Shown here: positions 45,582-57,152 of the stretch, one piece after another
Position numbering within the stretch: position 1 is the first letter of the stretch
Layout of the letters: each line of letters starts with the position of its first letter
NCBI GenBank assembly: GCA_049322915.1
Contig: JBMOPW010000036.1
Coordinates: 96,001-160,000 of the forward strand
DNA length: 64,000 bases
DNA from: Candidatus Zhuqueibacterota bacterium
Lineage (GTDB): Bacteria; Zhuqueibacterota; Zhuqueibacteria; Thermofontimicrobiales; Thermofontimicrobiaceae
Direction: 5' to 3'
Program-made: the position numbers and the translations under genes
Notes under the pieces: model-generated
Databases searched by the model: none
The model's input: the letters and a program-made list of their open reading frames with translations, nothing else
Told to the model about the DNA's origin: nothing

Positions 45582-46325
45582 TTATGCCACTGATGCGATT
45601 TTGATTTCCTGGTTGATTGAAGTCGAAGCCGTTTCATCATAGTTATTTGGGAAATAGGTGGCTTGATCACAACGATCGAAATCGGATACAACTCTCATTC
45701 GGTTGTTCGGTTTAGTAACGTTGGAATTGGATATCCTTTTGTCAAGTTGAATATTCCCAGTTGCAATGTTTTGCAATTGTTTTTGGAGACTGGCATTGTC
45801 GGAATCAGACTGGTCCTGAATAATAAATATGCTGGTGATGAGCATGTCTTCCAGACTTTCAATAATTTCAGTGAAAACGTCTACGAACAGATCTTTATCA
45901 TTGAAATCCATGTACGGGGTCAGTTCATCAAAAATGATATTGGAAGGATTGAATTCATTCACAGCGTTCAAAAGATCATAAAGGAACTCTGACAAGAGCG
46001 AATCGCGATCCTGGCCATTTTCTTCCATCCGCAACGGGGCTGTGCGCAGGATGATCAATTTATTTTCATCGATCAACGGTTGAATTTCCATTCCTTGCGC
46101 ATGCGCTGCCACAATAAGTTTTCTCGGGCGTATTTCCGTAAAATACAAAGTTACCTCACCTTGCAAGGCAGCGTTGTAGGCATATTGTAATGCCAAAGTC
46201 GTTCTACCTGATTTTGAAGGACCGTTTACGATATAGGTGCTACCATTATAAAAACCACCCCATTTGTTATCGATCAAGTCAATCCCTGTTGTCTTCAATG
46301 TCACTGTCTTGTTCATCATATTCAC
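45582..46325 (-). CDS. KaiC/RAD55-family single-domain ATPase
   Basis: TGIDLID..WGG, variant Walker A GPSKSGRT, Walker B IIFDEL. Confidence 0.8.
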   Translation of the reverse strand: MNMMNKTVTLKTTGIDLIDNKWGGFYNGSTYIVNGPSKSGRTTLALQYAYNAALQGEVTLYFTEIRPRKLIVAAHAQGMEIQPLIDENKLIILRTAPLRMEENGQDRDSLLSEFLYDLLNAVNEFNPSNIIFDELTPYMDFNDKDLFVDVFTEIIESLEDMLITSIFIIQDQSDSDNASLQKQLQNIATGNIQLDKRISNSNVTKPNNRMRVVSDFDRCDQATYFPNNYDETASTSINQEIKIASVA

Positions 46326-46784: not shown

Positions 46785-48260
46785 TCAGTCAACCCGTGAA
46801 ATTAGTTTTACATTTTTTAGATTTGCTCCGATCAGGTATTTCATGTTGTAGAACTTACCCCACGGTATTTCGTGTCTCGGTGACATCTGGTCAGCTACTA
46901 CAATGACTTCTCGCCCTGCCTCTTTCTTGTATTCGCGGAAGATGCAAGAGTGTCCAGTTACCGGCGGTAATTTTTCCTTTGTGTCCCCGTCTCTCACAAC
47001 CTTATACGCCCTCTTGTCGACCCACAATTGCAGAAAAGCACCAGCCTTTAGGCCGGCAGGCCAAGCCTGCTCGTCTTCTTGTGAAATTATAAATTCATCT
47101 TCGTGTACAAGTCGGGCATAGCGAAGTGCGCCTGCTGCTCCGGCTCCTCTGCAAACCCCACCGAGGATGTTTTTATAGCCTTTCCAGGAGGGTGAATTAT
47201 ATCGGCTTACCCAAAAGTGTATGAAGGGCCATCTATGTACAACAACGTAGTGGCCATCACTTCCTTCCCAGGCCATACGAGGTATCTCGTACCGAATTGA
47301 TTTTTTTTCTTTACCTAACATTAAATTCGTAGTGAGAGCCGATGCCCCGAGTATTCGTGTGCAGACTTTGGAGAAAATGTAAAGGCTAGTTCCGACACAT
47401 CGAAGAGGTGCAAAAAGAGCATGGTAGGCGCTCTTCCCTTCTTTCATGTAATATTGCTTTTCTAATACATTTGTCAGATATGATTCAACGCGGTTTTGCA
47501 GAAGAATTTCTTCACCGGCTGCTAAGTAGCGGACTCTTTGGATGAGTTCCTCCAATGTGCCCGGGTTTGTTCCATACTCATACAGGAACTCTAAAACCGA
47601 AGCATCATCCACAGTTGCGGATTCAGCAGGGTGAAAAAATGCTTGCTGCTCTTCACTGGAGAGAAAAGAGGAATCCGGCTCTTCACTCGTAATTTGAGGA
47701 TCGTCCTCTTGCAAGGCAGATGGCGCCTCCGACTCGGTCTGACCGACGCGATATCGCCCTGGCCTGTTCTCGATGTTTTGCGACATTTCCTTGCCAGCGA
47801 CCAATCCGTACTGATTAGCTTTTTCTATTTCATCAAAGTCAATCAGCGGCGCTTCCGCAGCCTCATTTGTTTCCAGTTCAAACTCGATCAGGTTCTCTTC
47901 TTTCCCTTGGTTTATCAGCGCGTGCTGTGCACCTTGAGATGGCTCTTCTCGCTCGCCAACTCCGACTTGAGAGGGTTCAGCAGTGCTATCCGGGTCGTAA
48001 ATAGGATTTGCCTCACGAAGCGAACCAGGCTGTACTCCGTCTCTCAGACCATCAGATTCAATCGATTGTGTCTCTGCAGCACGCCATAGACGATCTTCAA
48101 ACCCATGGAGAAATGGATGATCGGCAATCAGATTCGCCAAACGCCCTTCCCACTCGGCCTCAGCCTCCTTGTTGAACAATTCTTCATCAAGGAAAGGAGA
48201 TTCTAGGTCTCCCATCATATAGGCACGCAGTGTTTTATCTTTCTCATCTTGCATGTTCAT
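46785..48260 (-). CDS. Protein with a long acidic SPFL-motif leader and a putative papain-fold Cys-His-Asp hydrolase domain
   Basis: DLESPFLDEELF..EAEWE..HPFL leader; C-terminal RCVGT...GHSCIF...VADQ; RBS AAAGGA precedes the ATG at 48260. Confidence 0.7.
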   Translation of the reverse strand: MNMQDEKDKTLRAYMMGDLESPFLDEELFNKEAEAEWEGRLANLIADHPFLHGFEDRLWRAAETQSIESDGLRDGVQPGSLREANPIYDPDSTAEPSQVGVGEREEPSQGAQHALINQGKEENLIEFELETNEAAEAPLIDFDEIEKANQYGLVAGKEMSQNIENRPGRYRVGQTESEAPSALQEDDPQITSEEPDSSFLSSEEQQAFFHPAESATVDDASVLEFLYEYGTNPGTLEELIQRVRYLAAGEEILLQNRVESYLTNVLEKQYYMKEGKSAYHALFAPLRCVGTSLYIFSKVCTRILGASALTTNLMLGKEKKSIRYEIPRMAWEGSDGHYVVVHRWPFIHFWVSRYNSPSWKGYKNILGGVCRGAGAAGALRYARLVHEDEFIISQEDEQAWPAGLKAGAFLQLWVDKRAYKVVRDGDTKEKLPPVTGHSCIFREYKKEAGREVIVVADQMSPRHEIPWGKFYNMKYLIGANLKNVKLISRVD

Positions 48261-48279
48261 CACCGATCCTTTCATTCAG

Positions 48280-49383
48280 TTATCTCACTGCTACTTTACC
48301 TGCTTTAACGTCATGGCCGGTAATAATGGACCAGTGGGTTATGATCATCCGCAGGTCAGCTTCAGGACCTGGACCCGAAAAGCTAGCCGGGTACGCTGTA
48401 CCTTTCGTATAGAGTTCAATAACCTTTGCTGAATTATTATACGTTTTCATTTCAATTTGTATTAGAATTCTGGAGATAGGATCCGCGATATCAAAAAGAC
48501 TACTGGAGAGACCGTGTGCGGGGAGTCCGACGCGTTGAGCTATTTTATAAAGACGCTGTTCTGCACCAGTCGCTTGGGCCCTGAGGTCTTCAATGATTGA
48601 TGGTTCAGGATCGGTTTCGATAGTCAGATGGAACCACGACATCATTGAGACGAGTGCAAATTCTTCGCGAGAGAGACTACCATCCTTCCTTCGCGACAAT
48701 AGCATGTCAGACAGCCTATTAAGCAAAGTAATAATTTTTGCATCATCGATTGGCTTGGGTGCAGCACTGGCGGAAATATGTGTCATGCCGATCCATACTT
48801 CACGTAGCAATTCCTCAAACGTTATCACGAACTCGTTGTTTGCAGCATCAGCTCTGATGTACGGATAAGGCTGACCGTCGTCTTTACCATGGTTCAGATC
48901 CATGCCGAACATTCGCTGGTAAGCATTCCTCCGAGTCGCTCTCATATCTGGGCGTATATGGCTAACAATGGATGTAATAGTTAATGGGAGAGGATCCTTG
49001 TAAAAGAGTTCCTCGGTGTTATGCATCCATTGTTGGCTTTCCGGGCTAAGGGTTCCGAGTTTCTCTCCGTGTAAGAATTCAATAAGAACGCGATTAAAGA
49101 TTTCATATATCCTTGTATTCTCGATCATGTAAGCGTAAATCAGGTGATCCCACATAGCTGGAACTGTCAATCCTCTGCCAAAGGCATTCAAATTCCTATT
49201 GAGCATTGATGAAGAAGCAATTTTACTTCTATTAACTGGGGTACCAATTATCGTTCCCGTAACAGTTTTGTTGCGCCAGGTTAATTCTAGCAGTTTGAGT
49301 AGTTCAAAAGGGTGTGCCTGGAAAAGAGTTCTAGCTCCATTTGGTAAGCTTGCTCCATTTTGTTTGACAAATTCTCTAAACAT
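48280..49383 (-). CDS. Hypothetical, probably helical, cytoplasmic protein
   Basis: 367-aa ORF, strong RBS AAGGAGG, WDHLIYAYMIENTRI...RRNAYQRMFG; no recognisable family. Confidence 0.85.
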   Translation of the reverse strand: MFREFVKQNGASLPNGARTLFQAHPFELLKLLELTWRNKTVTGTIIGTPVNRSKIASSSMLNRNLNAFGRGLTVPAMWDHLIYAYMIENTRIYEIFNRVLIEFLHGEKLGTLSPESQQWMHNTEELFYKDPLPLTITSIVSHIRPDMRATRRNAYQRMFGMDLNHGKDDGQPYPYIRADAANNEFVITFEELLREVWIGMTHISASAAPKPIDDAKIITLLNRLSDMLLSRRKDGSLSREEFALVSMMSWFHLTIETDPEPSIIEDLRAQATGAEQRLYKIAQRVGLPAHGLSSSLFDIADPISRILIQIEMKTYNNSAKVIELYTKGTAYPASFSGPGPEADLRMIITHWSIITGHDVKAGKVAVR

Positions 49384-49755
49384 AGTTGTTCCTCCTTACA
49401 AAATCTTTGTTCCTAAGTAAAGGCAATTAATCAGATAATTAGCTTGTCTCTAGTTTATCGCTGAAGTCTTTACGCTCATTAATGGCATTCTTTACGTCAT
49501 TTTTAAGCCGGGGAATTGCTGCTTTGGCTCTATTATGAAACGATTTGAATAACGTTATCACTTCATTGTCCTGCTCACAGGTGAAGAAATGATTGCATTA
49601 ATTTATATGGAAATTGACTTGAACATTTTTTCAATCTCATCGATCTGTTGCTTTAAGCCCTTTCTGTACTGCAGTTGTTCATAAGTATACATCTCTTTCT
49701 TTGGCTTTGAATTATTCTCATAGGGGTTATAGCGTTTTTAATATTCCTTGGCTGC

Positions 49756-51033
49756 TTAAGCAACCTGCAAAGCGCCGCCAAGTTTTAACATCCATTCTTC
49801 TGGTTGCCCCAATGTGCCTGTCTTTCTTTCTGGCTTTGTCGCCATGTGAAGACCGGTGAGCGCCAGCAACCGTATCGCCTCAGTCCAAATCCAATGCATT
49901 GAGGTGTACAGCGCCACCCCGAGTTGCTGTTCGAGTGCCAGCAAGACATCGGGTTTGACGCGCCCGGGATTAATGAGGGTTGCCAGCGAACGCCCGCCGA
50001 AAGCCCGCATGGGTTCAATCAACGTTATCTCTACAATACGTGGGAGCAAGGGCAGGGAAGCGCGGACAAGTGTTTTGGTTGCGCTTAGCGCCTTTTCGAG
50101 TGAATACACATCCGCCCAGGCCCGGGCTAAATTATCCCAGGGACCTGCTTCATAAAACTGCCGGCACATCTCTACCCCAAGCAACAACCTTAAAAATCCA
50201 ATAGGATGGGGATCGCCTGGTATATTCCGAAAGACCAGCGCTTCTTCACCCGCCAGAACGTCGTGCAATGCTGCGATACTGGCGTAGCCTGTATGTACAA
50301 AGGCGAAAGCGTCGGCGGCGATTTCAGAGGCCCAGCTTGACCACGCCTCAACTATTTCACTCGGCAGATCAGGCAGGTTCGCTATCAGTTTAGCGGCAAG
50401 TTCTTCGTTCCAGCTTAAAATGTGGGCAATCTGATGGCCGGCTTCATGAATCAATGCAGTAGGGCGCAGCAGGTTATGCCGTGTAATTTTGACAACCGCA
50501 ACAGGATTCACGCTGGTACCGTCCCAAAGCCGCAAGCCAGCTTTGAGAATAGAAGCACCCAATCCCTTATCGATATATGTCAATACGACCGGCGTTGGTT
50601 TGCCAAGCAAATCAAGAAGTTGAGTCATACTTCGATGTGCCAGGGTATCACAAGCTCTTAAATAACCTGCAATCTTGTGGTTAGTCCGTGTGTTGATCGC
50701 GTCAGCGTAAAAGTCCAGCGTGGTCTCGACGCGCATATAGCGAGTACGGAAGGCGATCAACTGCCGTCGCACGGCTGATAGTTGGGTGGCGGTGAAAGCT
50801 GCGGCGAGCGCGGCTTGTAATAATGTAGCCTCACGGTCTAACTGAACGATCACTGCCGAAAGGTGCTGCCGGATGGACAATCCAAGGTAGCGCTCGATGC
50901 CGTTCCACGCAGCAGACGAGGCCAGGTCATCCATGTTCTGAAGCCGCGCGACAGCATCGACCCAATGGGCGACCTGGCAGGCGAGTTGCATTTTCATTTC
51001 AAGGTACAAGTCATTCATGGATATATCCCGCAT
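49756..51033 (-). CDS. Zincin-like metallopeptidase (HEXXH) with an N-terminal helical region
   Basis: LIHEAGHQ, downstream SEIAAD (candidate third Zn ligand) and DPHP; overlaps the upstream gene. Confidence 0.8.
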   Translation of the reverse strand: MRDISMNDLYLEMKMQLACQVAHWVDAVARLQNMDDLASSAAWNGIERYLGLSIRQHLSAVIVQLDREATLLQAALAAAFTATQLSAVRRQLIAFRTRYMRVETTLDFYADAINTRTNHKIAGYLRACDTLAHRSMTQLLDLLGKPTPVVLTYIDKGLGASILKAGLRLWDGTSVNPVAVVKITRHNLLRPTALIHEAGHQIAHILSWNEELAAKLIANLPDLPSEIVEAWSSWASEIAADAFAFVHTGYASIAALHDVLAGEEALVFRNIPGDPHPIGFLRLLLGVEMCRQFYEAGPWDNLARAWADVYSLEKALSATKTLVRASLPLLPRIVEITLIEPMRAFGGRSLATLINPGRVKPDVLLALEQQLGVALYTSMHWIWTEAIRLLALTGLHMATKPERKTGTLGQPEEWMLKLGGALQVA

Positions 51034-53386
51034 TGATTTTTATTTTTATCGTGGGTACGCCATCCGACACCTTCAGACTTGGAAGGGAAAGTCCCTTTCC
51101 TTTTAGCGCCTGGCGCAGTTGAGCGAACCCCGGGATATTGCCAAGGGTGATCACAACCGTTACCCCGTCAGCAGTATCCTCGGTTGCCTTGATAAACTCC
51201 TCAGCGCCTCGCTTCAGATGGTCGGCAAGTCCTTTAACAACCCATTCCTGTAGCCGGCTAAGGAGAACTTGTGGTACAAGAGATGGTAATCGTTGAAGCG
51301 CACCTGACCGCTGGTCTGGCGTCACGGACTCATGAATGACTTTTAAACGTCCATAGGAGCCTTTAATAGCTTTATGCAGTCCCCGCTCGATATATCTTCG
51401 TAAGCGCGCTGTGACTGTGCCGATGTGGGCATGCTGACGAAGTTTAACTGCGACCTCTTGAGAACGAATTTCACTGAGAAACAAGTAAACTCTGACTTCG
51501 TTCTTAGGGAAGTCAAGGATCAGCCTCACCTTTGTAGCTCGCCTCATATTGACTCGACCGGCTGGCCCTGGAATTGTGAGGGGACGCTTTCCCGGAATCT
51601 CCAGATAGTAAAAGCGCTGCCCTTCTGCTATGACATTTCGGTCGCTTTCAAGGTGTGGATCGATTTCGCGACCCAGGTCTGGTTCTCCCAATAACAGCGT
51701 GGCAGCTTGGCGGGTCAGGGGATGGAGTTGGTCGCGCCCATTCGCTGAGCCAAACCCCGGAGTATTTTCCTCTTGTTGAGCGATGTCCGATAGCCGTGTC
51801 CCGGAGATCGCCTCGTAAAGATGGACGATGGCTTTGACCTCCTCGCCTGGAGTTATTCCAAGTTGCTCCTCTAATAGCTCATCAAGAGTAACGCCTTCAA
51901 AGGTTTCGAGGTCTGCCACTTTGTACGGAGTGAGTTGAGTGGGAATTTTTCGACTATATTTCTTGTACCGCTTTCGACGGTTGCGTGGCATCATGACCCA
52001 AACGCCCTGGAGCTTTTTAGTCTCTCTGAGTTCAGGACGCTTTCGATAGGTATCTTCCGGAAGAACGGGCGGAAGATTAGCAGAAGCAGCCTGTTCAAAT
52101 GTTTCAAGCGCAGTGCCCTCGAGAAATTCCTGGTTATCAAGGATATAATTCGGAGCGGCGGCTACACCTCGCACAGTTTCCTCGATGGTGGCGGCAATTG
52201 CCTCAGCGGCTGCTCGGGAATTATCTACGGGCGTCGCTTCCAACTGGATGAGTCGCAAGCCAGCATCTACAATTGCTTGAGAGAGAGCAGGCGCATACTT
52301 TGGGCCAACGAACTTCTGAATCAGCCTGCCCATGAGCTTTGCCAGGAAACCTACAACTTTTTTCCGACCCATGAGTCTTATCCCCATTTGCAAGGCAGGA
52401 AGAACGGCCGGCAAAAAATTTTCAACGTAGGGAGTCGGGTCTTCCCCCTCCTTCAGACCTCTCAGGTTCTCTATAAACAGGTCTCTAGCACGGTCCAACT
52501 CGGCTAAAGGATAAGTATCAGAAGTCTCTTGATCAGTGAGTGCTTTAGCGACTTCCAAATCCTGCTCCACCTCGGTGTGGGAGAACAGGATGTTTGCGAC
52601 CTGTTGATCAAACTCCTGTTGAATCTCAGCCACCTCGTAGGTCGGAATAGCCCCTGATACGGATTCATAGATATCCTCAACTTCTTTCAATAAAGGAAGG
52701 CGTTCTGCCAGCTTTTTTGCGATGGGCTGAACTGAAGCCGGTAGCTTGCGAATGGCGAACCTGATGACGCGCATGAGCAGTGGTTTGATTAGCTGCTTGA
52801 GCTTAGGAAGAATGAGCGAAATGCCTCCCGTAGCCATAGCTGTTATGCCCTTTTTTGCAAGCGAAACGGCTTTCTTTGCCACCTTCTTGATGCCTTTTTT
52901 GAGATTCCCTAAAAATTCCTCGAAGCTGGGTGACAGTTCAACTGAAGGTCGATACCGGTCAACAATGGTATCGATTTCGTCTTCGGTGAGGGTACTTGGA
53001 TCATGCTGACGAAACTCCCTGGCGAAAGCCTCAAACATGGCCTCGGCCTCGGCAACGAGAGGGGCGAAATGTTGATCGAGGAGTCGTTCAGTATAACCGA
53101 TCATCTGGATATTTTCTTGCTCGTGCATGAAGTATGTCTCGTAGATGGCCGCGGCTTCATTCACCAGGCCGGACAGAGCCTCATCGAATTCTTCATCATA
53201 AAGCTCATTCAAAAATACGACGTACTCTTCAGCCACAGGATCGACCAAGCCACCGCCTTCTTCCGACTCATAGAGCGACAAGAAGGGGCTATTCGGGGGA
53301 ACAAAAAGCTCTCGTTCACCAATCTTTCCATTTCCTTCCTCCATTGTAAAACTGCTAATATCCAAAAAAGGTGCTTGATTCTTCAT
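51011..53386 (-). CDS. Large hypothetical protein with acidic SPFL leader and cationic amphipathic segments
   Basis: 791-aa ORF, RBS AAGGAG; NSPFLSLYESEE, EEFLGNLKKGIKKVAKK, ENFLPAVLPAL. Confidence 0.85.
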   Translation of the reverse strand: MKNQAPFLDISSFTMEEGNGKIGERELFVPPNSPFLSLYESEEGGGLVDPVAEEYVVFLNELYDEEFDEALSGLVNEAAAIYETYFMHEQENIQMIGYTERLLDQHFAPLVAEAEAMFEAFAREFRQHDPSTLTEDEIDTIVDRYRPSVELSPSFEEFLGNLKKGIKKVAKKAVSLAKKGITAMATGGISLILPKLKQLIKPLLMRVIRFAIRKLPASVQPIAKKLAERLPLLKEVEDIYESVSGAIPTYEVAEIQQEFDQQVANILFSHTEVEQDLEVAKALTDQETSDTYPLAELDRARDLFIENLRGLKEGEDPTPYVENFLPAVLPALQMGIRLMGRKKVVGFLAKLMGRLIQKFVGPKYAPALSQAIVDAGLRLIQLEATPVDNSRAAAEAIAATIEETVRGVAAAPNYILDNQEFLEGTALETFEQAASANLPPVLPEDTYRKRPELRETKKLQGVWVMMPRNRRKRYKKYSRKIPTQLTPYKVADLETFEGVTLDELLEEQLGITPGEEVKAIVHLYEAISGTRLSDIAQQEENTPGFGSANGRDQLHPLTRQAATLLLGEPDLGREIDPHLESDRNVIAEGQRFYYLEIPGKRPLTIPGPAGRVNMRRATKVRLILDFPKNEVRVYLFLSEIRSQEVAVKLRQHAHIGTVTARLRRYIERGLHKAIKGSYGRLKVIHESVTPDQRSGALQRLPSLVPQVLLSRLQEWVVKGLADHLKRGAEEFIKATEDTADGVTVVITLGNIPGFAQLRQALKGKGLSLPSLKVSDGVPTIKIKINAGYIHE

Positions 53387-53482: not shown

Positions 53483-53812
53483 TTATTTTATCCCCGATGA
53501 AGGACTATCTGTATTGGATTGAAGTTGACTTATTCCTTTTAATGAAAATTTAACCTTTAATGGCCATCGCACATATTCACTGGAATTTGGCATATCGATT
53601 ATTCCATTGTGATTTTTATCCAGACCATATCCATCATCGAGGGTGAATTCTAACTGGGGGTTTGATGGAGCAGGAATAGGAATTGGAATCAGTCGTTCAT
53701 TAACCCGTTGTGGTTGTGCCTGAGTTGGAACTGCAAATAATAAAAACGAAAGGAGTAAACATAATATTACATTCTTATTAAAAGAAAATAACTGAGAAAT
53801 TAGCATATTCAT
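53483..53812 (-). CDS. Short secreted protein, possibly 3'-truncated
   Basis: Signal peptide (..PTQA|Q), DKNHNGIID Ca-loop-like motif, ends after 109 aa. Confidence 0.55.
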   Translation of the reverse strand: MNMLISQLFSFNKNVILCLLLSFLLFAVPTQAQPQRVNERLIPIPIPAPSNPQLEFTLDDGYGLDKNHNGIIDMPNSSEYVRWPLKVKFSLKGISQLQSNTDSPSSGIK

Positions 53813-54003: not shown

Positions 54004-55431
54004 TTACTTAACACGCATAAGAAGCATTCGGAAAGGTTTATTTTGATATACTTCTCCATTCTCATACCAAATACTAATTCCTAAATTAGTCAGAGAATAG
54101 GATATTGATTCATCGTCAAAAGCATCTTCAAAACTTCCCTGCCCTTTCCAATGCGAGTCCCACTTTTTAATTTCAAGACAAATGACGCGCGTGTTGTTCA
54201 TATCAAATCCAGATGGATAACTTATAAATGTCGGAGGGCTTGAAGTCGCTGTCCGTCCGGTTATTTGCATAATCTGCAAGATAGAAACACCAGACGCACC
54301 CAATTTTAGCCCATCATCTCCTACGACCAGGACTTGACCTGAAAGATACACATCTCCGCTTATATTGACATTGGGTGGTTCATTTTCACCGCCGGGGGAA
54401 TCGATAAAATAAAATGTATTGTTATGATAATCTATAAAATCAGCCGAAACGCCAGCATGGCCGAATGAAAGGTAATTTTCTCCCTGCAGACCGACGCTAT
54501 TCGGTTCAACACTATTTGGAAATCTCAGCCCCCGAAAATAACCAATACCATTTACGGCCAGTTTGTATTGTGGATCGCCGAAACCAATACCGACATTGCC
54601 GTTGCTTTTTATCGTAAAGGCATCAATAAGTCGATTTTGAGTTCCATCACGAAAAAATCGAATTGTTTCTTTACCAGATGGACCAGCATTATCAATCTCC
54701 CATGCTCCCTGATTATCCCCATCAACCAGCGTTATTTGGCCACCTTCCTCACCTTCACCGGTGATCACAACAGATCCTTCGACTTCCAGTCCGTTACCAT
54801 CAATCTGAACCGGGCCGGCATCTGCCACAATTTTACGTCCGGCACCGGGACCACCGAAATCATAGGCCTGATCCAGCGTGCCACCACCAGTTCCACCCCC
54901 TTTTGCTGCCGTTGTTTGGGTGCTGCCATCCGGAAATTTAAAGCCGCCTTCAGTAGAATGGATGGGACCTTTCACCTGCAGCTTAGCCGTGGGATTGTCC
55001 AGGCCAATCCCCACATTTCCCTGAGTCGGAAAAACATTTGTACTGCCCTGAACAGAACCTGCCGTGTAAGCATACGGCACACTGGCAATTTGCTGCCTCG
55101 GACTCAAGGTCTCATTTCCGATGACGATTTCTAGAAATCTCGTTTTATCAGAAAAAATATCCATTGGAATCGGATTCTGACTCCCTAATAAGATACTGAA
55201 TACTCCCTGGTTGATAGGTACGCTGGAATTAACTTCTTCCCAGCGTTTTTCACCGCCGGTCAATGCCGTATAAATTCGAAACGTCATACTTTGGTTTTGG
55301 TTAATTGGATCACCGTTATTATCCGTTAAATAGCCCTGATAAAAAATCACTTGCGGAATTTTCTGGGCATTCAGACTGCTGGCCAGAATTGCCAGAATCA
55401 TCATCATCATAAAATAAATTTTGAATTTCAT
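54004..55431 (-). CDS. Secreted fibre/adhesin-like protein with GNVGIG repeats
   Basis: Signal peptide; YQGYLTD..G...F.IY...W.E...G.FS..LG...LSPRQ.I.SVPYA head; two GNVGIG motifs. Confidence 0.75.
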   Translation of the reverse strand: MKFKIYFMMMMILAILASSLNAQKIPQVIFYQGYLTDNNGDPINQNQSMTFRIYTALTGGEKRWEEVNSSVPINQGVFSILLGSQNPIPMDIFSDKTRFLEIVIGNETLSPRQQIASVPYAYTAGSVQGSTNVFPTQGNVGIGLDNPTAKLQVKGPIHSTEGGFKFPDGSTQTTAAKGGGTGGGTLDQAYDFGGPGAGRKIVADAGPVQIDGNGLEVEGSVVITGEGEEGGQITLVDGDNQGAWEIDNAGPSGKETIRFFRDGTQNRLIDAFTIKSNGNVGIGFGDPQYKLAVNGIGYFRGLRFPNSVEPNSVGLQGENYLSFGHAGVSADFIDYHNNTFYFIDSPGGENEPPNVNISGDVYLSGQVLVVGDDGLKLGASGVSILQIMQITGRTATSSPPTFISYPSGFDMNNTRVICLEIKKWDSHWKGQGSFEDAFDDESISYSLTNLGISIWYENGEVYQNKPFRMLLMRVK

Positions 55432-56114: not shown

Positions 56115-57152
56115 CTACCACGCATATGCCTCCGGCGCCTCTACTCTCGGTCCTGGCCAAATCTCATCCAGTTTTTTCTTGGTTGATACACTCAACTCAA
56201 TTTCCAGCGACCGCAAACTTTCGATCAACGGGTCGACGGTACGCGGCTCCATAATCGGCGCCGTGACCACTGGATTTTTAAACAGCCAGGCCAATGCCAC
56301 ATCCGCCGGCTTTTCACCCAGGGCTTTACAAAGGAGTTCGTAGGCTTCAATTTTGTCTTTCATCTTTTCAATCTTGTCACCCAGCATGGACCGCCGTCCC
56401 TCTTTTGCTTTTATCAATCCGCCAGCCAGTGAGCCTTCACTCAAAGGGCTATAAGGAATCAGTCCCACGCCATATTCACGACAGGCAGGAATCACTTCCA
56501 GTTCTGGAATCCGGGAGTAACGTTTGTATTGCGTCTGTTCCGCTGCCAGTCCTAAAAAGTGTCGGGCATTGGCGGTTTCACAGGCCAGAGCGATATTCCA
56601 ACCGGCAAAATTGCTGCTATCGGTATAAATGACTTTGTCCTGTTGCATCATAACTTCCATAGCCTGCCAGGTCTCTTCCCATTGTGTCGCTTTTTTCATA
56701 TGCAGCGGACAATACAACTTCATTCACGGCAGACTAAACCACGCAATCATACTGGGCAGTATTTCCCCCCGGTCGATGTGATTCATATTGAAGCACATCG
56801 ATAAGATCCGGTTTCAATCGCCGACGACTGTTCTCGACCGATTGCCTGATATGAAATGCCGAAAGTCCGAAATCATTGGGTCCCGTGCCCATGGGGATAT
56901 AAACTTTGGTAGCCAGCACTATTTTTCCCGGAGCGAGCCATTTACCAATAATCTGTTCGGTAATTCCCTCTCCCAATTTTTCGGAAAAACCGTACACATT
57001 CGCCATATCAAAAAAATTGATGCCTGCCTCCACTGCTGCATCTATAATCTGAAAATTATCGGCTTCATTGGACTCCAGCCAAAATTTATAGTACCCAGAC
57101 AAAGCCGGCTGACGATGACCCCTGCGCGTCCTAAAGAGGTGTATTGCATCAT
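56115..57152 (-). pseudogene. Frameshifted aldo/keto reductase
   Basis: MMQYTSLGRAGVIVSRLCLGT.NFG, then GINFFDMANVYG...ATKV, then SSNFAGW...PYSPL..G...APEAYAW lie in different frames. Confidence 0.85.

Follow-up and report, generated by a model that had tools for sequence, protein, structure and literature searches.

A conserved gene cassette with a putative zinc metallopeptidase and swappable tagged cargo: a possible lytic-effector module of bacteria and an archaeon

Background

What kind of system is encoded by four co-oriented genes that combine a metallopeptidase-like protein with partners of no named family? This question is raised by a locus in the window, by which we mean the whole analysed stretch of 64,000 nucleotides from a Candidatus Zhuqueibacterota bacterium. 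A first-pass annotation had proposed that the peptidase matures proteins with a common acidic leader, that the 791-aa and 367-aa proteins build a core which is structural or acts on membranes, that the last gene is interchangeable cargo and that the unit serves toxin delivery, export or defence. It had been unable to assign the locus to a named family, and this still holds: the proteins of the first three genes (A, B and C) have no match in Pfam, NCBIfam, PADLOC and PHROG, none in the PDB beyond weak fold matches described below, and none that we found in the literature.

Results

Translation of the window gives four ORFs, which lie, like all features described below, on the minus strand. Gene A (51011..53386, 791 aa) encodes a core protein in which a tag, an acidic region and a cationic amphipathic segment can be told apart; the large remainder is uncharacterised. 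It is followed by gene B (49756..51033, 425 aa) for a putative zinc metallopeptidase of the gluzincin type with an N-terminal three-helix bundle. The start of B is more likely at 51018, since the database homologues have 420 aa; the 23-nt overlap of A and B described at first applies to the first ATG of B and shrinks to 8 nt with this start. Gene C (48280..49383, 367 aa) encodes an all-helical conserved core protein and gene D (46785..48275, 496 aa) a variable, tag-bearing cargo protein. For D, the start at 48260 (491 aa) is probable, because an identical database protein has 491 aa and the alignment with relatives fits. C then ends about 20 nt before a protein of roughly 490 aa, just as the first-pass annotation had it, and 4 nt before the first ATG of D.

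The gap of 372 nt between B and C was absent from that description. In most of the related loci it holds an ORF of 37-195 aa, and these ORFs have a short core in common, E-[F/Y]-x-x-I-[K/R]-x-x-L, with which a 29-aa ORF of the window (49603..49692) aligns by inspection. This ORF may be a small gene s of the cassette, an assignment of low confidence. No signal peptide or transmembrane segment was found in A-D, the best 19-residue Kyte-Doolittle means being 0.98-1.33, compared to 1.65-1.96 in neighbouring proteins of 109 and 475 aa, where the peak stretch is N-terminal. ORF calls and hydropathy agree in this respect with the initial description of four co-oriented genes lacking signal peptides.

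Translation of B confirmed the HEXXH and EIAAD motifs that had been noted. The zinc-binding and catalytic motif HEAGH (50434..50448) comprises aa 196-200 within helix 192-205 of the AF2 model, and EIAAD (50311..50325), with the putative third zinc ligand Glu plus an Asp, comprises aa 237-241 within helix 235-248. H196, E197, H200, E237 and D241 are invariant in an alignment of 24 sequences, and we take E237 to be the third zinc ligand by analogy to gluzincins. The model (mean pLDDT 90.2) consists of strands, then the HExxH helix, then the ExxxD helix, and in this arrangement resembles gluzincins (M48 BepA 6ait/6sar, M61 7xyo, M3 4ka7), which likewise have a beta-sheet before the active-site helix. 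B differs from them by its additional N-terminal three-helix bundle and by matching no peptidase model (0 families in Pfam at E ≤ 0.01 and in NCBIfam at E ≤ 0.1). Structural matches are weak: M48 BepA (Z 7.0, rmsd 4.4, 158 aligned residues; Z 6.5, rmsd 4.3, 165 aligned residues) and, with Foldseek, a peptidase of family M61 (E 0.29, probability 0.66). They come from a search with the full-length model, in which the N-terminal helix bundle dominated the match lists. Motifs and weak structural matches (Z 7.0) together point to a putative zincin/gluzincin metallopeptidase.

Homologues of B number more than 2230, and identity to the best 120 is 66-76%. In 31 related loci, where B is 40-70% identical, an A homologue lies directly upstream of B in 29 cases (30-67% identity; in the remaining two the contig ends first) and C lies downstream in 28 (33-57% identity). 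The complete order A-B-C on one strand is present in 26 of the 31 loci; four others are cut by contig ends and one is decayed. The hosts comprise monoderms, diderms and an archaeon; with 11 named phylum labels, next to rows without label, they represent at least 11 phyla plus Methanosarcina. Among 60 relatives of the window's organism B occurs in one, and it is absent from a genome of the same genus at 94% completeness. In the tree, the B protein of the window groups with rows from Desulfobacterales, Acidobacteriota, Calditrichota and Methanosarcina (clade support 97/96), whereas the four Bacteroidota rows lie elsewhere, and the GC content of A and B (50-53%) contrasts with that of the flanking genes (41-46%). 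Judged from these sequence comparisons, transfer between phyla is evident.

With A as query, all clusters found in the ESM Atlas consist of hypothetical proteins, and its model of A is poor (pTM 0.42). The highest helical hydrophobic moment of A, 0.67 (protein mean 0.285, sd 0.145), is located at aa 154-181, a region with a net charge of +7/+8 per 18 residues. It begins the Lys-rich cationic amphipathic segment (aa 154-230, 52697..52927), which is preceded by 150 residues with a net charge of -26. The Lys-rich character is kept in the family consensus and in small A-like proteins of the Ensifer locus L032. For C, the AF2 model (pLDDT 83.4, pTM 0.87) gave no Foldseek match at E ≤ 0.001, and VIA-align matched merely a helical hairpin (Z ≤ 7.0). 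In the alignment of C, 27 columns are invariant and many of these hold charged residues; adaptor, inhibitor and enzyme are all possible roles.

The acidic PFL leader ascribed to the first and the last protein proved to be a shared bipartite SPFL...SPF tag. In A it covers aa 1-45 (53252..53386), an acidic stretch in which about 28 residues separate two S/A-P-F motifs, and is conserved across 18 homologues. In D it covers aa 19-63 (48087..48221; ESPFLDEELF ... HPFLHGFE), and the motifs quoted initially, QAPFLD, NSPFLSLYESEE, ESPFLDEELF and DHPFLHGFE, are all present in the translations. Comparison of 18 A N-termini with 20 cargo N-termini by hhalign gave a probability of 94.4% (E 9.3e-8). An HMM of the leader, as proposed in the first-pass annotation, detects D with E 3.7e-21, D itself being a training member, and in a library of size 1.84 billion the tag profile matched 228 protein clusters at E ≤ 1e-3. 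The tag starts within the first 36 residues in 144 of the 150 listed library matches. The assumption of a strictly N-terminal leader did not hold, since the tag is internal in three loci (L007, L010, L003) and C-terminal in another (L008); the surrounding sequence is acidic over a long distance and probably disordered. These positions agree with a docking or cleavage module and not with a simple N-terminal pro-peptide. In the genome of the window, D was the single tag-bearing protein found. Across the loci with DNA beyond C, 23 of 27 have a tag-bearing neighbour, while in four (L006, L019, L021, L023) no tag can be recognised beside the core. A three-gene core conserved across phyla with variable PFL-leader cargo, the pattern named in advance as support for the system, is thus what the loci display.

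The gene following C is indeed interchangeable, as had been suspected: it varies from locus to locus while the tag is kept, only the first ~60 residues of D match downstream genes elsewhere, and close cassettes have swapped their cargo, of which each cassette holds one to three genes. D has a net charge of -37 over its first 250 residues, followed by a basic domain, and contains no Pfam domain. Its C-terminal domain (aa ~215-496, 46785..47633) has look-alikes in NlpC/P60, C39 and papain-like clusters of the ESM Atlas (feature score 0.92-0.94, TM about 0.5), and a Cys as well as the His of GHSCIF are conserved in its three relatives. As a lead, this domain is probably a papain-like (NlpC/P60- or C39-like) hydrolase. 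Pfam domains were present in 40 of 59 tag proteins scanned and absent from the other 19. Of these 40 proteins, 27 are peptidoglycan-lytic or -binding (VanY/M15, DUF2272, SLT, Amidase_2, M23, GH46, Muramidase, lysozyme, PG_binding_1, OmpA), 11 have trypsin-like domains only, one is transglutaminase-like (TGL) and one is an amine oxidase. The cargo at the loci gives the same picture, several lytic domains can occur in one protein, and the Methanosarcina cargo carries DUF2272, SLT and PG_binding_1. Since most of the cargo consists of peptidoglycan hydrolases and of trypsin-like proteases, all lacking signal peptides, cell-wall attack or lysis is favoured over export in general, and the functional proposal of the first-pass annotation is narrowed accordingly.

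Discussion

Our explanation, to which we assign about an even chance, is that the core A-B-(small s)-C and its swappable cargo arm the host with cytoplasmically made cell-wall-lytic enzymes, as a self-contained, horizontally mobile and polymorphic lytic-effector module whose peptidase B processes tagged pro-proteins. The tag would dock A and the cargo onto a receptor encoded in the cassette, most likely the peptidase B, which would remove the acidic pro-regions. Loss of the pro-region would unmask the cationic amphipathic segment of A, leading to a membrane breach, while the freed basic lytic domains would reach peptidoglycan. Release might occur when a subpopulation of producers lyses, or by leakage via A. 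Cleavage by B, membrane activity of A, a membrane-active or structural core of A and C as envisaged in the first-pass annotation, and the release route are all inferred. Methanosarcina lacks peptidoglycan. Since its cargo is nevertheless specific for peptidoglycan, the module is most likely aimed at other cells, in antagonism against bacteria. Several findings weigh against our explanation: the loci have no conserved exit machinery or immunity gene, four of 27 have no recognisable tag beside the core, Pfam domains are absent from 19 of the 59 tag proteins and from D, the zincin fold of B is based on motifs plus weak structural matches, and the tag can be internal or C-terminal. A bolder version of this idea, which we regard as tentative and would not bet on, sees in A-B-s-C an envelope-independent protein weapon of bacteria and archaea, in which a gluzincin licenses a membrane-breaching A and tag-recruited lysins, without a secretion ATPase or a phage-derived apparatus.

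The cassette resembles polymorphic toxin systems in that conserved accessory genes adjoin a cargo gene, otherwise similar loci differ in their cargo and the genes spread horizontally. Such systems, too, combine a conserved trafficking module with interchangeable enzymatic domains (Zhang et al. 2012, PMC3482391). The cassette differs in that the core has no match among known families of secretion or trafficking, that a bipartite linear motif of about 45 residues, which may be internal or C-terminal, takes the place of a folded domain, and that the cargo consists mainly of peptidoglycan hydrolases. No trafficking domain known from Pfam was found in A-D, in the cargo of the loci or in the tag proteins scanned. 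Likewise, no conserved immunity gene is evident, and the genes that follow the cargo share no recurrent family, a comparison that small or fast-evolving immunity genes would escape. A SUKH-1 gene near L008 is the only immunity hint.

T6SS, T7SS and the Xanthomonas-type T4SS deliver peptidoglycan-hydrolase effectors marked by MIX, LXG and XVIPCD tags, so that lytic effectors without Sec signal which are recognised by a common tag have precedents. In contrast to these systems, the cassette is not accompanied by an apparatus: neither an ATPase nor a membrane protein nor any known component of secretion is conserved near the core in the loci, and hydropathy, Pfam and a sheath search revealed no known secretion route (signal peptide, T5/T6/T7, PVC). 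The contractile sheath PF04984 has 0 matches in the genome of the window (96.3% complete); two of five other host genomes have matches, one of them above the cut-off.

In endolysin-holin pairs, cytoplasmic lysins depend on a membrane-breaching partner, and a holin or a protease-activated gasdermin can serve as model for suicide lysis. By this logic, B would cleave A upon a trigger, the cationic segment of A would permeabilise the own membrane and the lysins would destroy the own wall before a phage completes its cycle, which amounts to anti-phage abortive infection. We consider this reading unlikely, although it is the strongest of the rivals. All parts are cytoplasmic without export signal, as for wall hydrolases in holin-endolysin cassettes, the protease adjoins a putative membrane-active pro-protein, and a patchy distribution with horizontal transfer is what defence genes typically show. 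The genes immediately upstream include regulators (sigma-54 activators in five loci; ECF sigma, LuxR, BTAD and AraC types elsewhere), TPR-CHAT proteins occur near three loci, and R-M and pPIWI-nuclease genes beside L002. However, peptidoglycan-specific cargo is kept in Methanosarcina, the flanks are mostly housekeeping genes and not defence islands, and amine-oxidase and trypsin-like cargo as well as several lytic domains per protein rather suggest an arsenal against others. PADLOC 2.0 gave 0 families for A-D at E ≤ 0.1 and, for eight proteins in and around the cassette, solely a weak mad8 match of a KaiC-like neighbour. Unlike a holin, A has no transmembrane segment (maximum in A-D 1.33), 50,697 phage records and the PHROGs gave no match, and the metallopeptidase and the shared tag are additional. 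Protease-activated pro-proteins are known from bacterial gasdermins with a neighbouring protease, the anionic pro-pieces of cationic antimicrobial peptides and the acidic pro-region of prolysostaphin; as in the cassette, the protease gene adjoins a protein with an acidic segment before a cationic membrane-active or lytic part. Here, no gasdermin fold or family was matched, the protease is a putative gluzincin and not caspase-like, and the cleavage is presumed.

A particle or compartment with A and/or C as shell or scaffold, the tag as cargo-loading peptide and B as maturation protease appears improbable to us. The cargo-loading peptides of encapsulins and the targeting sequences of phage proheads, which the prohead protease cleaves, are likewise short tags in disordered linkers which direct diverse enzymes, with a dedicated protease. 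The variable position of our tag in acidic stretches, its presence in the invariant core protein A, which would be scaffold-like, and the very strong core conservation, frequent in structural assemblies, would fit, and sequestration of lysins, proteases and an H2O2-making oxidase would account for the missing immunity genes. On the other hand, neither the fold search with C nor the profile of A against PDB sequences detected an HK97-like or other shell protein, the searches revealed no likeness to a capsid, encapsulin or any phage family, C matches no known fold and the model of A is poor. Least probable is a housekeeping system for cell-wall remodelling or developmental autolysis with a purely regulatory tag. 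In its favour, the cargo is composed of cell-wall enzymes and many hosts are filamentous or aggregate-forming (cyanobacteria, Streptomyces, myxobacteria, Methanosarcina), but B is missing in 59 of 60 relatives, transfer between phyla is evident, an archaeon without peptidoglycan carries the cassette and close cassettes swap their cargo.

Conclusions

The core comprises three protein families with thousands of members, which are still 60-70% identical when an archaeon is compared with distant bacterial phyla, and for which we found no name, domain model, solved relative or paper, and which a tag links to swappable peptidoglycan hydrolases, proteases and an oxidase. With four or five genes it is a compact, testable system, the ~45-residue tag of which could direct foreign cargo, and its cargo is a source of new lytic enzymes. 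Only 32% of the archaeal PGH homologues are reported to have a known signal peptide (PMC12352652), and the cassette could help to account for archaeal peptidoglycan hydrolases without one. If the cassette delivers or unleashes its cargo, this would be a new mechanism of antagonism or programmed lysis, independent of the envelope type. Should the tentative view of an envelope-independent weapon be true, it would add a fourth delivery route for cell-wall hydrolases to secretion systems, phage-tail particles and holin-endolysin lysis, and would be one means by which Methanosarcina attacks bacteria.

Organization of the cassette

The cassette comprises four genes on the minus strand, namely A (53386..51011, an ORF of 791 aa), B (51033..49756, 425 aa from the first ATG), C (49383..48280, 367 aa) and D (48275..46785, 496 aa from the first ATG). 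The first-pass annotation had described four co-oriented genes with a 23-nt overlap between A and B, and both statements hold, the overlap being counted from the first ATG of B. A start of B at 51018 is likelier, because the B homologues have 420 aa, and the start of D was placed at 48260, 19 nt after C, because an identical database copy of D has 491 aa. A gap of 372 nt (49384-49755) separates B and C. Translation verified HEAGH and EIAAD in B and likewise the four PFL motifs that the annotation cites. The reported absence of signal peptides was confirmed as well, since no stretch of A to D is hydrophobic enough for a signal peptide or TM helix. Over 19 residues, hydropathy peaks at 0.98-1.33 in these proteins and at 1.65-1.96 in two neighbours whose most hydrophobic stretch is N-terminal. 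Judged from the sequences, all parts of the cassette appear to be cytoplasmic.

Pfam, NCBIfam, PADLOC and PHROGs returned nothing for any of A to D, and the core proteins A, B and C match no named family. The GC content is 50-53% in A and B and 41-46% in the flanking genes. A scan for sigma-70 promoters and terminators gave no signal higher than in shuffled sequences.

Upstream of A, at a distance of 96 nt, a 109-aa protein is encoded (53483-53812, minus strand) that has a hydrophobic N-terminal stretch and no family match. This putatively secreted protein was considered as a member of the cassette and excluded, because tblastn found no match in any of the 31 homologous loci described below. 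The next protein (54004-55431, minus strand, 475 aa) has a hydrophobic N-terminus and matches, below threshold, the N-domain of Bdellovibrio mosaic adhesive trimer fibre proteins (E = 1.5e-9, 37.9 bits vs a cut-off of 60) and, at E = 1.5e-6, a tail-fibre family of PHROGs; it is not kept beside the cassette elsewhere. An aldo/keto reductase at 56115-57102 (minus strand) is split into two adjacent ORFs of 122 aa (profile positions 13-115) and 202 aa (positions 113-290); the gene has probably been frameshifted or disrupted. Downstream of D, at a distance of about 460 nt, lies the gene of a single-domain KaiC/RecA-like ATPase (45582-46325, minus strand, 247 aa) with a weak match to PADLOC mad8 (E = 1.1e-6) and tblastn matches in 0 of the 31 loci.

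Conservation and distribution of the core

The core, consisting of A, B, a candidate small gene s in the B-C gap, and C, is a fixed and widely transferred cassette. We compared 31 loci from a pattern-based scan with one genome per species, which is a sample and no census; synteny was assessed by tblastn with the proteins of the window, ORFs were called mechanically and taxon labels are those of the submitters. A, B and C occur in this order on a single strand in 26 of the 31 loci, and the remainder consists of four loci truncated by a contig end beside the gene pair present (L011, L016, L022 and L031) and one decayed copy (L030). The conserved three-gene core predicted in the first-pass annotation does therefore exist. 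In the metagenome-assembled loci L029 and L030, A and B are broken across several frames, and L030 has no C downstream; the two have either decayed or been misassembled.

When all ORFs of the loci were clustered all against all, only three other recurring families emerged: trypsin-like cargo (11 loci), sigma-54 activators upstream (5 loci) and TPR-CHAT proteins (3 loci). The remaining flanks are made up of unrelated housekeeping or regulatory genes, and the clustered ORFs around the core include no ATPase, membrane protein or secretion component that is conserved.

More than 2230 B homologues were present among 8000 candidates scored, the best 120 sharing 66-76% identity. Among the organisms named as their sources are Zoogloea, Nitrosomonas, Arthrobacter, KSB1, Verrucomicrobia and Methanosarcina thermophila; the product names, where given, are all "hypothetical protein". 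A maximum-likelihood tree of B places the window in a supported clade (97/96) with rows from Desulfobacterales, Acidobacteriota, Calditrichota and Methanosarcina, and apart from four Bacteroidota rows. Of 60 genomes related to that of the window, only one possesses B, which is absent from a same-genus genome (94% complete) and from 12 genomes of the same family.

The cassette had no match in phage records, and plasmid records yielded only five distant matches, with 24-31% identity, from megaplasmids of rhizobia and Paraburkholderia. An Ensifer adhaerens megaplasmid carries a distant version of the cassette (L032, 8071-15013). This version encodes two small A-like proteins of 225 and 242 aa, which have an acidic SPF-like start, a Lys/Gly-rich segment and a conserved basic C-terminal end, together with a B-like peptidase of 451 aa, a C-like protein of 724 aa, a protein with PG_binding_1 and GIY-YIG domains, and a sigma-54 activator.

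A common tag on A and the cargo proteins

The A homologues start with two S/T-P-F motifs approximately 28 residues apart within an acidic stretch. The genes after C encode proteins starting with L-E-S-P-F-L-x-E-E-L-F ... W ... E-S-P-F-L-x-A-F-E and continuing in an extended acidic stretch. The profiles of A and of these cargo proteins match (hhalign probability 94.4%, E = 9.3e-8), in agreement with the earlier notion that the first and the last protein share N-termini with PFL motifs. DNA beyond C is available in 27 loci, and in 23 of these a gene bearing this tag adjoins the core, as counted by motif inspection and an HMM, 13 of whose matches are its own training rows; by the same means, no tag was seen in L006, L019, L021 and L023. 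L019 nonetheless encodes a protein with M15 and DUF2272 domains at the cargo position. Three tandem tag genes are present in L020, and L008 has one on each side of the core.

The designation of the acidic PFL region as a leader is only partly appropriate: the tag is N-terminal in most loci, but lies inside the protein in L007, L010 and L003 and at the C-terminus in L008, where it sits on an oxidase-DUF2272 protein. Large fusion proteins with a mid or C-terminal tag are encoded in L007 (10769-14173), L008 (10687-14016) and L010 (8389-12334); those of L007 and L008 contain a flavin amine-oxidase domain, to which L008 adds DUF2272.

A tag profile of 47 positions, applied to a library of 1.84 billion cluster representatives, gave 228 matches at E ≤ 1e-3, 58 of these at E ≤ 1e-10, in proteins of 53 to 1563 aa. 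The tag begins within the first 36 residues in 144 of the 150 matches listed. D is the only tag-bearing protein found in the window's genome.

Cargo enzymes

Out of the 150 tag proteins listed, 59 were scanned against Pfam: from the top 84 rows the proteins of 287 aa or more, and in addition P0209 and P0262. Shorter proteins were left out because they are likely fragments, as were P0130, P0146, P0157 and P0182 (same lengths as locus proteins already scanned) and P0199. Matches at E ≤ 1e-4 were found in 40 of the 59 proteins, with no Pfam match for the other 19. Peptidoglycan-lytic or -binding domains account for 27 of the 40 (VanY/M15, DUF2272, SLT, Amidase_2, M23, GH46, Muramidase, phage-tail lysozyme, 3D, Beta-lactamase2, PG_binding_1, OmpA and SH3_3), often two or three in one protein; 11 have trypsin-like domains only, one has a TGL domain and one is an amine oxidase. 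The downstream genes of the loci cover the same domain range, and the Methanosarcina cargo combines DUF2272, PG_binding_1 and SLT. The proteins scanned and the loci therefore bear out the proposal of variable cargo on a shared tag, the cargo being swappable enzymes, mostly peptidoglycan-lytic or -binding or trypsin-like.

D itself has no Pfam domain. In BLASTP against DUF2272-bearing cargo, the tag was the only part of D to align. The C-terminal 280 residues of D have only three relatives, one of them tag-bearing, and all three keep a Cys and the His of the motif GHSCIF. ESM Atlas look-alikes of this part belong to NlpC/P60, C39 and papain-like clusters, a resemblance which we regard as a lead.

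Properties of the core proteins

The AF2 model of B (pLDDT 90.2) consists of an N-terminal three-helix bundle (aa 6-114), strands, an HExxH helix and an ExxxD helix. The metallopeptidase-like character ascribed to B on account of HEXXH and EIAAD is corroborated by the zinc-site residues H196, E197, H200, E237 and D241, which are invariant in 24 B sequences with a mean column identity of 64%. For the ExxxD residues we assume the roles they have in thermolysin- and neprilysin-type enzymes. The catalytic part is matched best by the M48 peptidase BepA, with Z scores of 7.0 and 6.5, and by an M61 peptidase, to which Foldseek assigns a probability of 0.66. Foldseek of B gave no match at E ≤ 0.001, the wide VIA-align search recovered the N-terminal bundle only, and the B profile matched PDB sequences at chance level, the coiled coil of yeast Srn2 over the helix bundle (E = 6.5e-4) being the best match in the searches with A, B and C. 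Two matches to longer or fused B forms were dismissed as probably run-together genes. From the conserved residues and the model, we read B as a probably active gluzincin of no curated family. A complex prediction of B, C and the D tag scored 0.00, which counts neither for nor against an interaction.

The net charge of A is -26 over the first 150 residues and +12 over the next 100. Residues 154-181 have the top helical hydrophobic moment of the protein (0.67 vs a mean of 0.285, sd 0.145) and a net charge of +7/+8, and the Lys-rich segment is kept across the A family. The Atlas model of A is poor, its profile gave chance-level matches only against PDB sequences, and Pfam at E ≤ 5 showed no recurring family in all 23 A homologues. 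C is modelled by AF2 as all-helical (pLDDT 83.4, pTM 0.87) and has 27 invariant columns, many of them charged. Foldseek found no fold match for C at E ≤ 0.001, the wide VIA-align search only a helical hairpin, and the profile search of PDB sequences chance-level matches only.

The B-C gap is kept as a gap in most loci and holds a small fast-evolving ORF of 37-195 aa (about 170 aa in L015-L017) with a shared core E-[F/Y]-x-x-I-[K/R]-x-x-L. In the window, a 29-aa ORF (49603-49692, minus strand) aligns to this core and might be gene s, which is a weak call.

Possible function of the cassette

The core is fixed, A and the swappable cargo have the tag in common, the cargo is aimed at peptidoglycan and the zinc site of B is intact. 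It is conceivable that A and the cargo are recruited through the tag to a partner encoded by the cassette, peptidase B being the simplest candidate. B might then cut off the acidic pro-regions, upon which the cationic amphipathic segment of A would attack a membrane and the lysins would gain access to the wall. The proteins might leave the producer when a subpopulation lyses, or they might leak out through A. Methanosarcina has no peptidoglycan, and the peptidoglycan-specific cargo in this genus therefore argues for a use against bacteria and not for self-lysis. To this general reading we would give an even chance; the specific cleavage step by B is rather doubtful.

Lytic enzymes could also be turned against the producer in a suicide-lysis or defence module. 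Against self-lysis stands the Methanosarcina cargo, and the cassette matches no PADLOC system; we consider this explanation unlikely. Another possibility is a particle that is loaded with cargo and in which B would act as the maturation protease. No relation to phages was found in phage records or PHROGs; such a particle appears quite improbable. That the cassette is a housekeeping autolysin system, for which its wall-directed enzymes would be suited and to which the Methanosarcina cargo is again opposed, we regard as very improbable.

Relation to known systems

In its design, the cassette resembles polymorphic toxin systems and the tag-marked effectors of T6SS, T7SS and T4SS, in which exchangeable enzymatic domains carry a common trafficking module and conserved accessory genes lie alongside. 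Nothing of the apparatus that defines those systems was found: the cassette has no signal peptide, its neighbourhood is without an ATPase or membrane gene, and a sheath search, which detected no sheath family in the window's genome, led us to reject dependence on a contractile system. Full-text searches of the literature found no description of the cassette, and none of the four papers in which DUF2272 occurs deals with such a system. We file the cassette as a kind of polymorphic effector system on an uncharacterised core. Should this core turn out to be a self-sufficient machine for delivery or lysis, it would represent an entirely new category.
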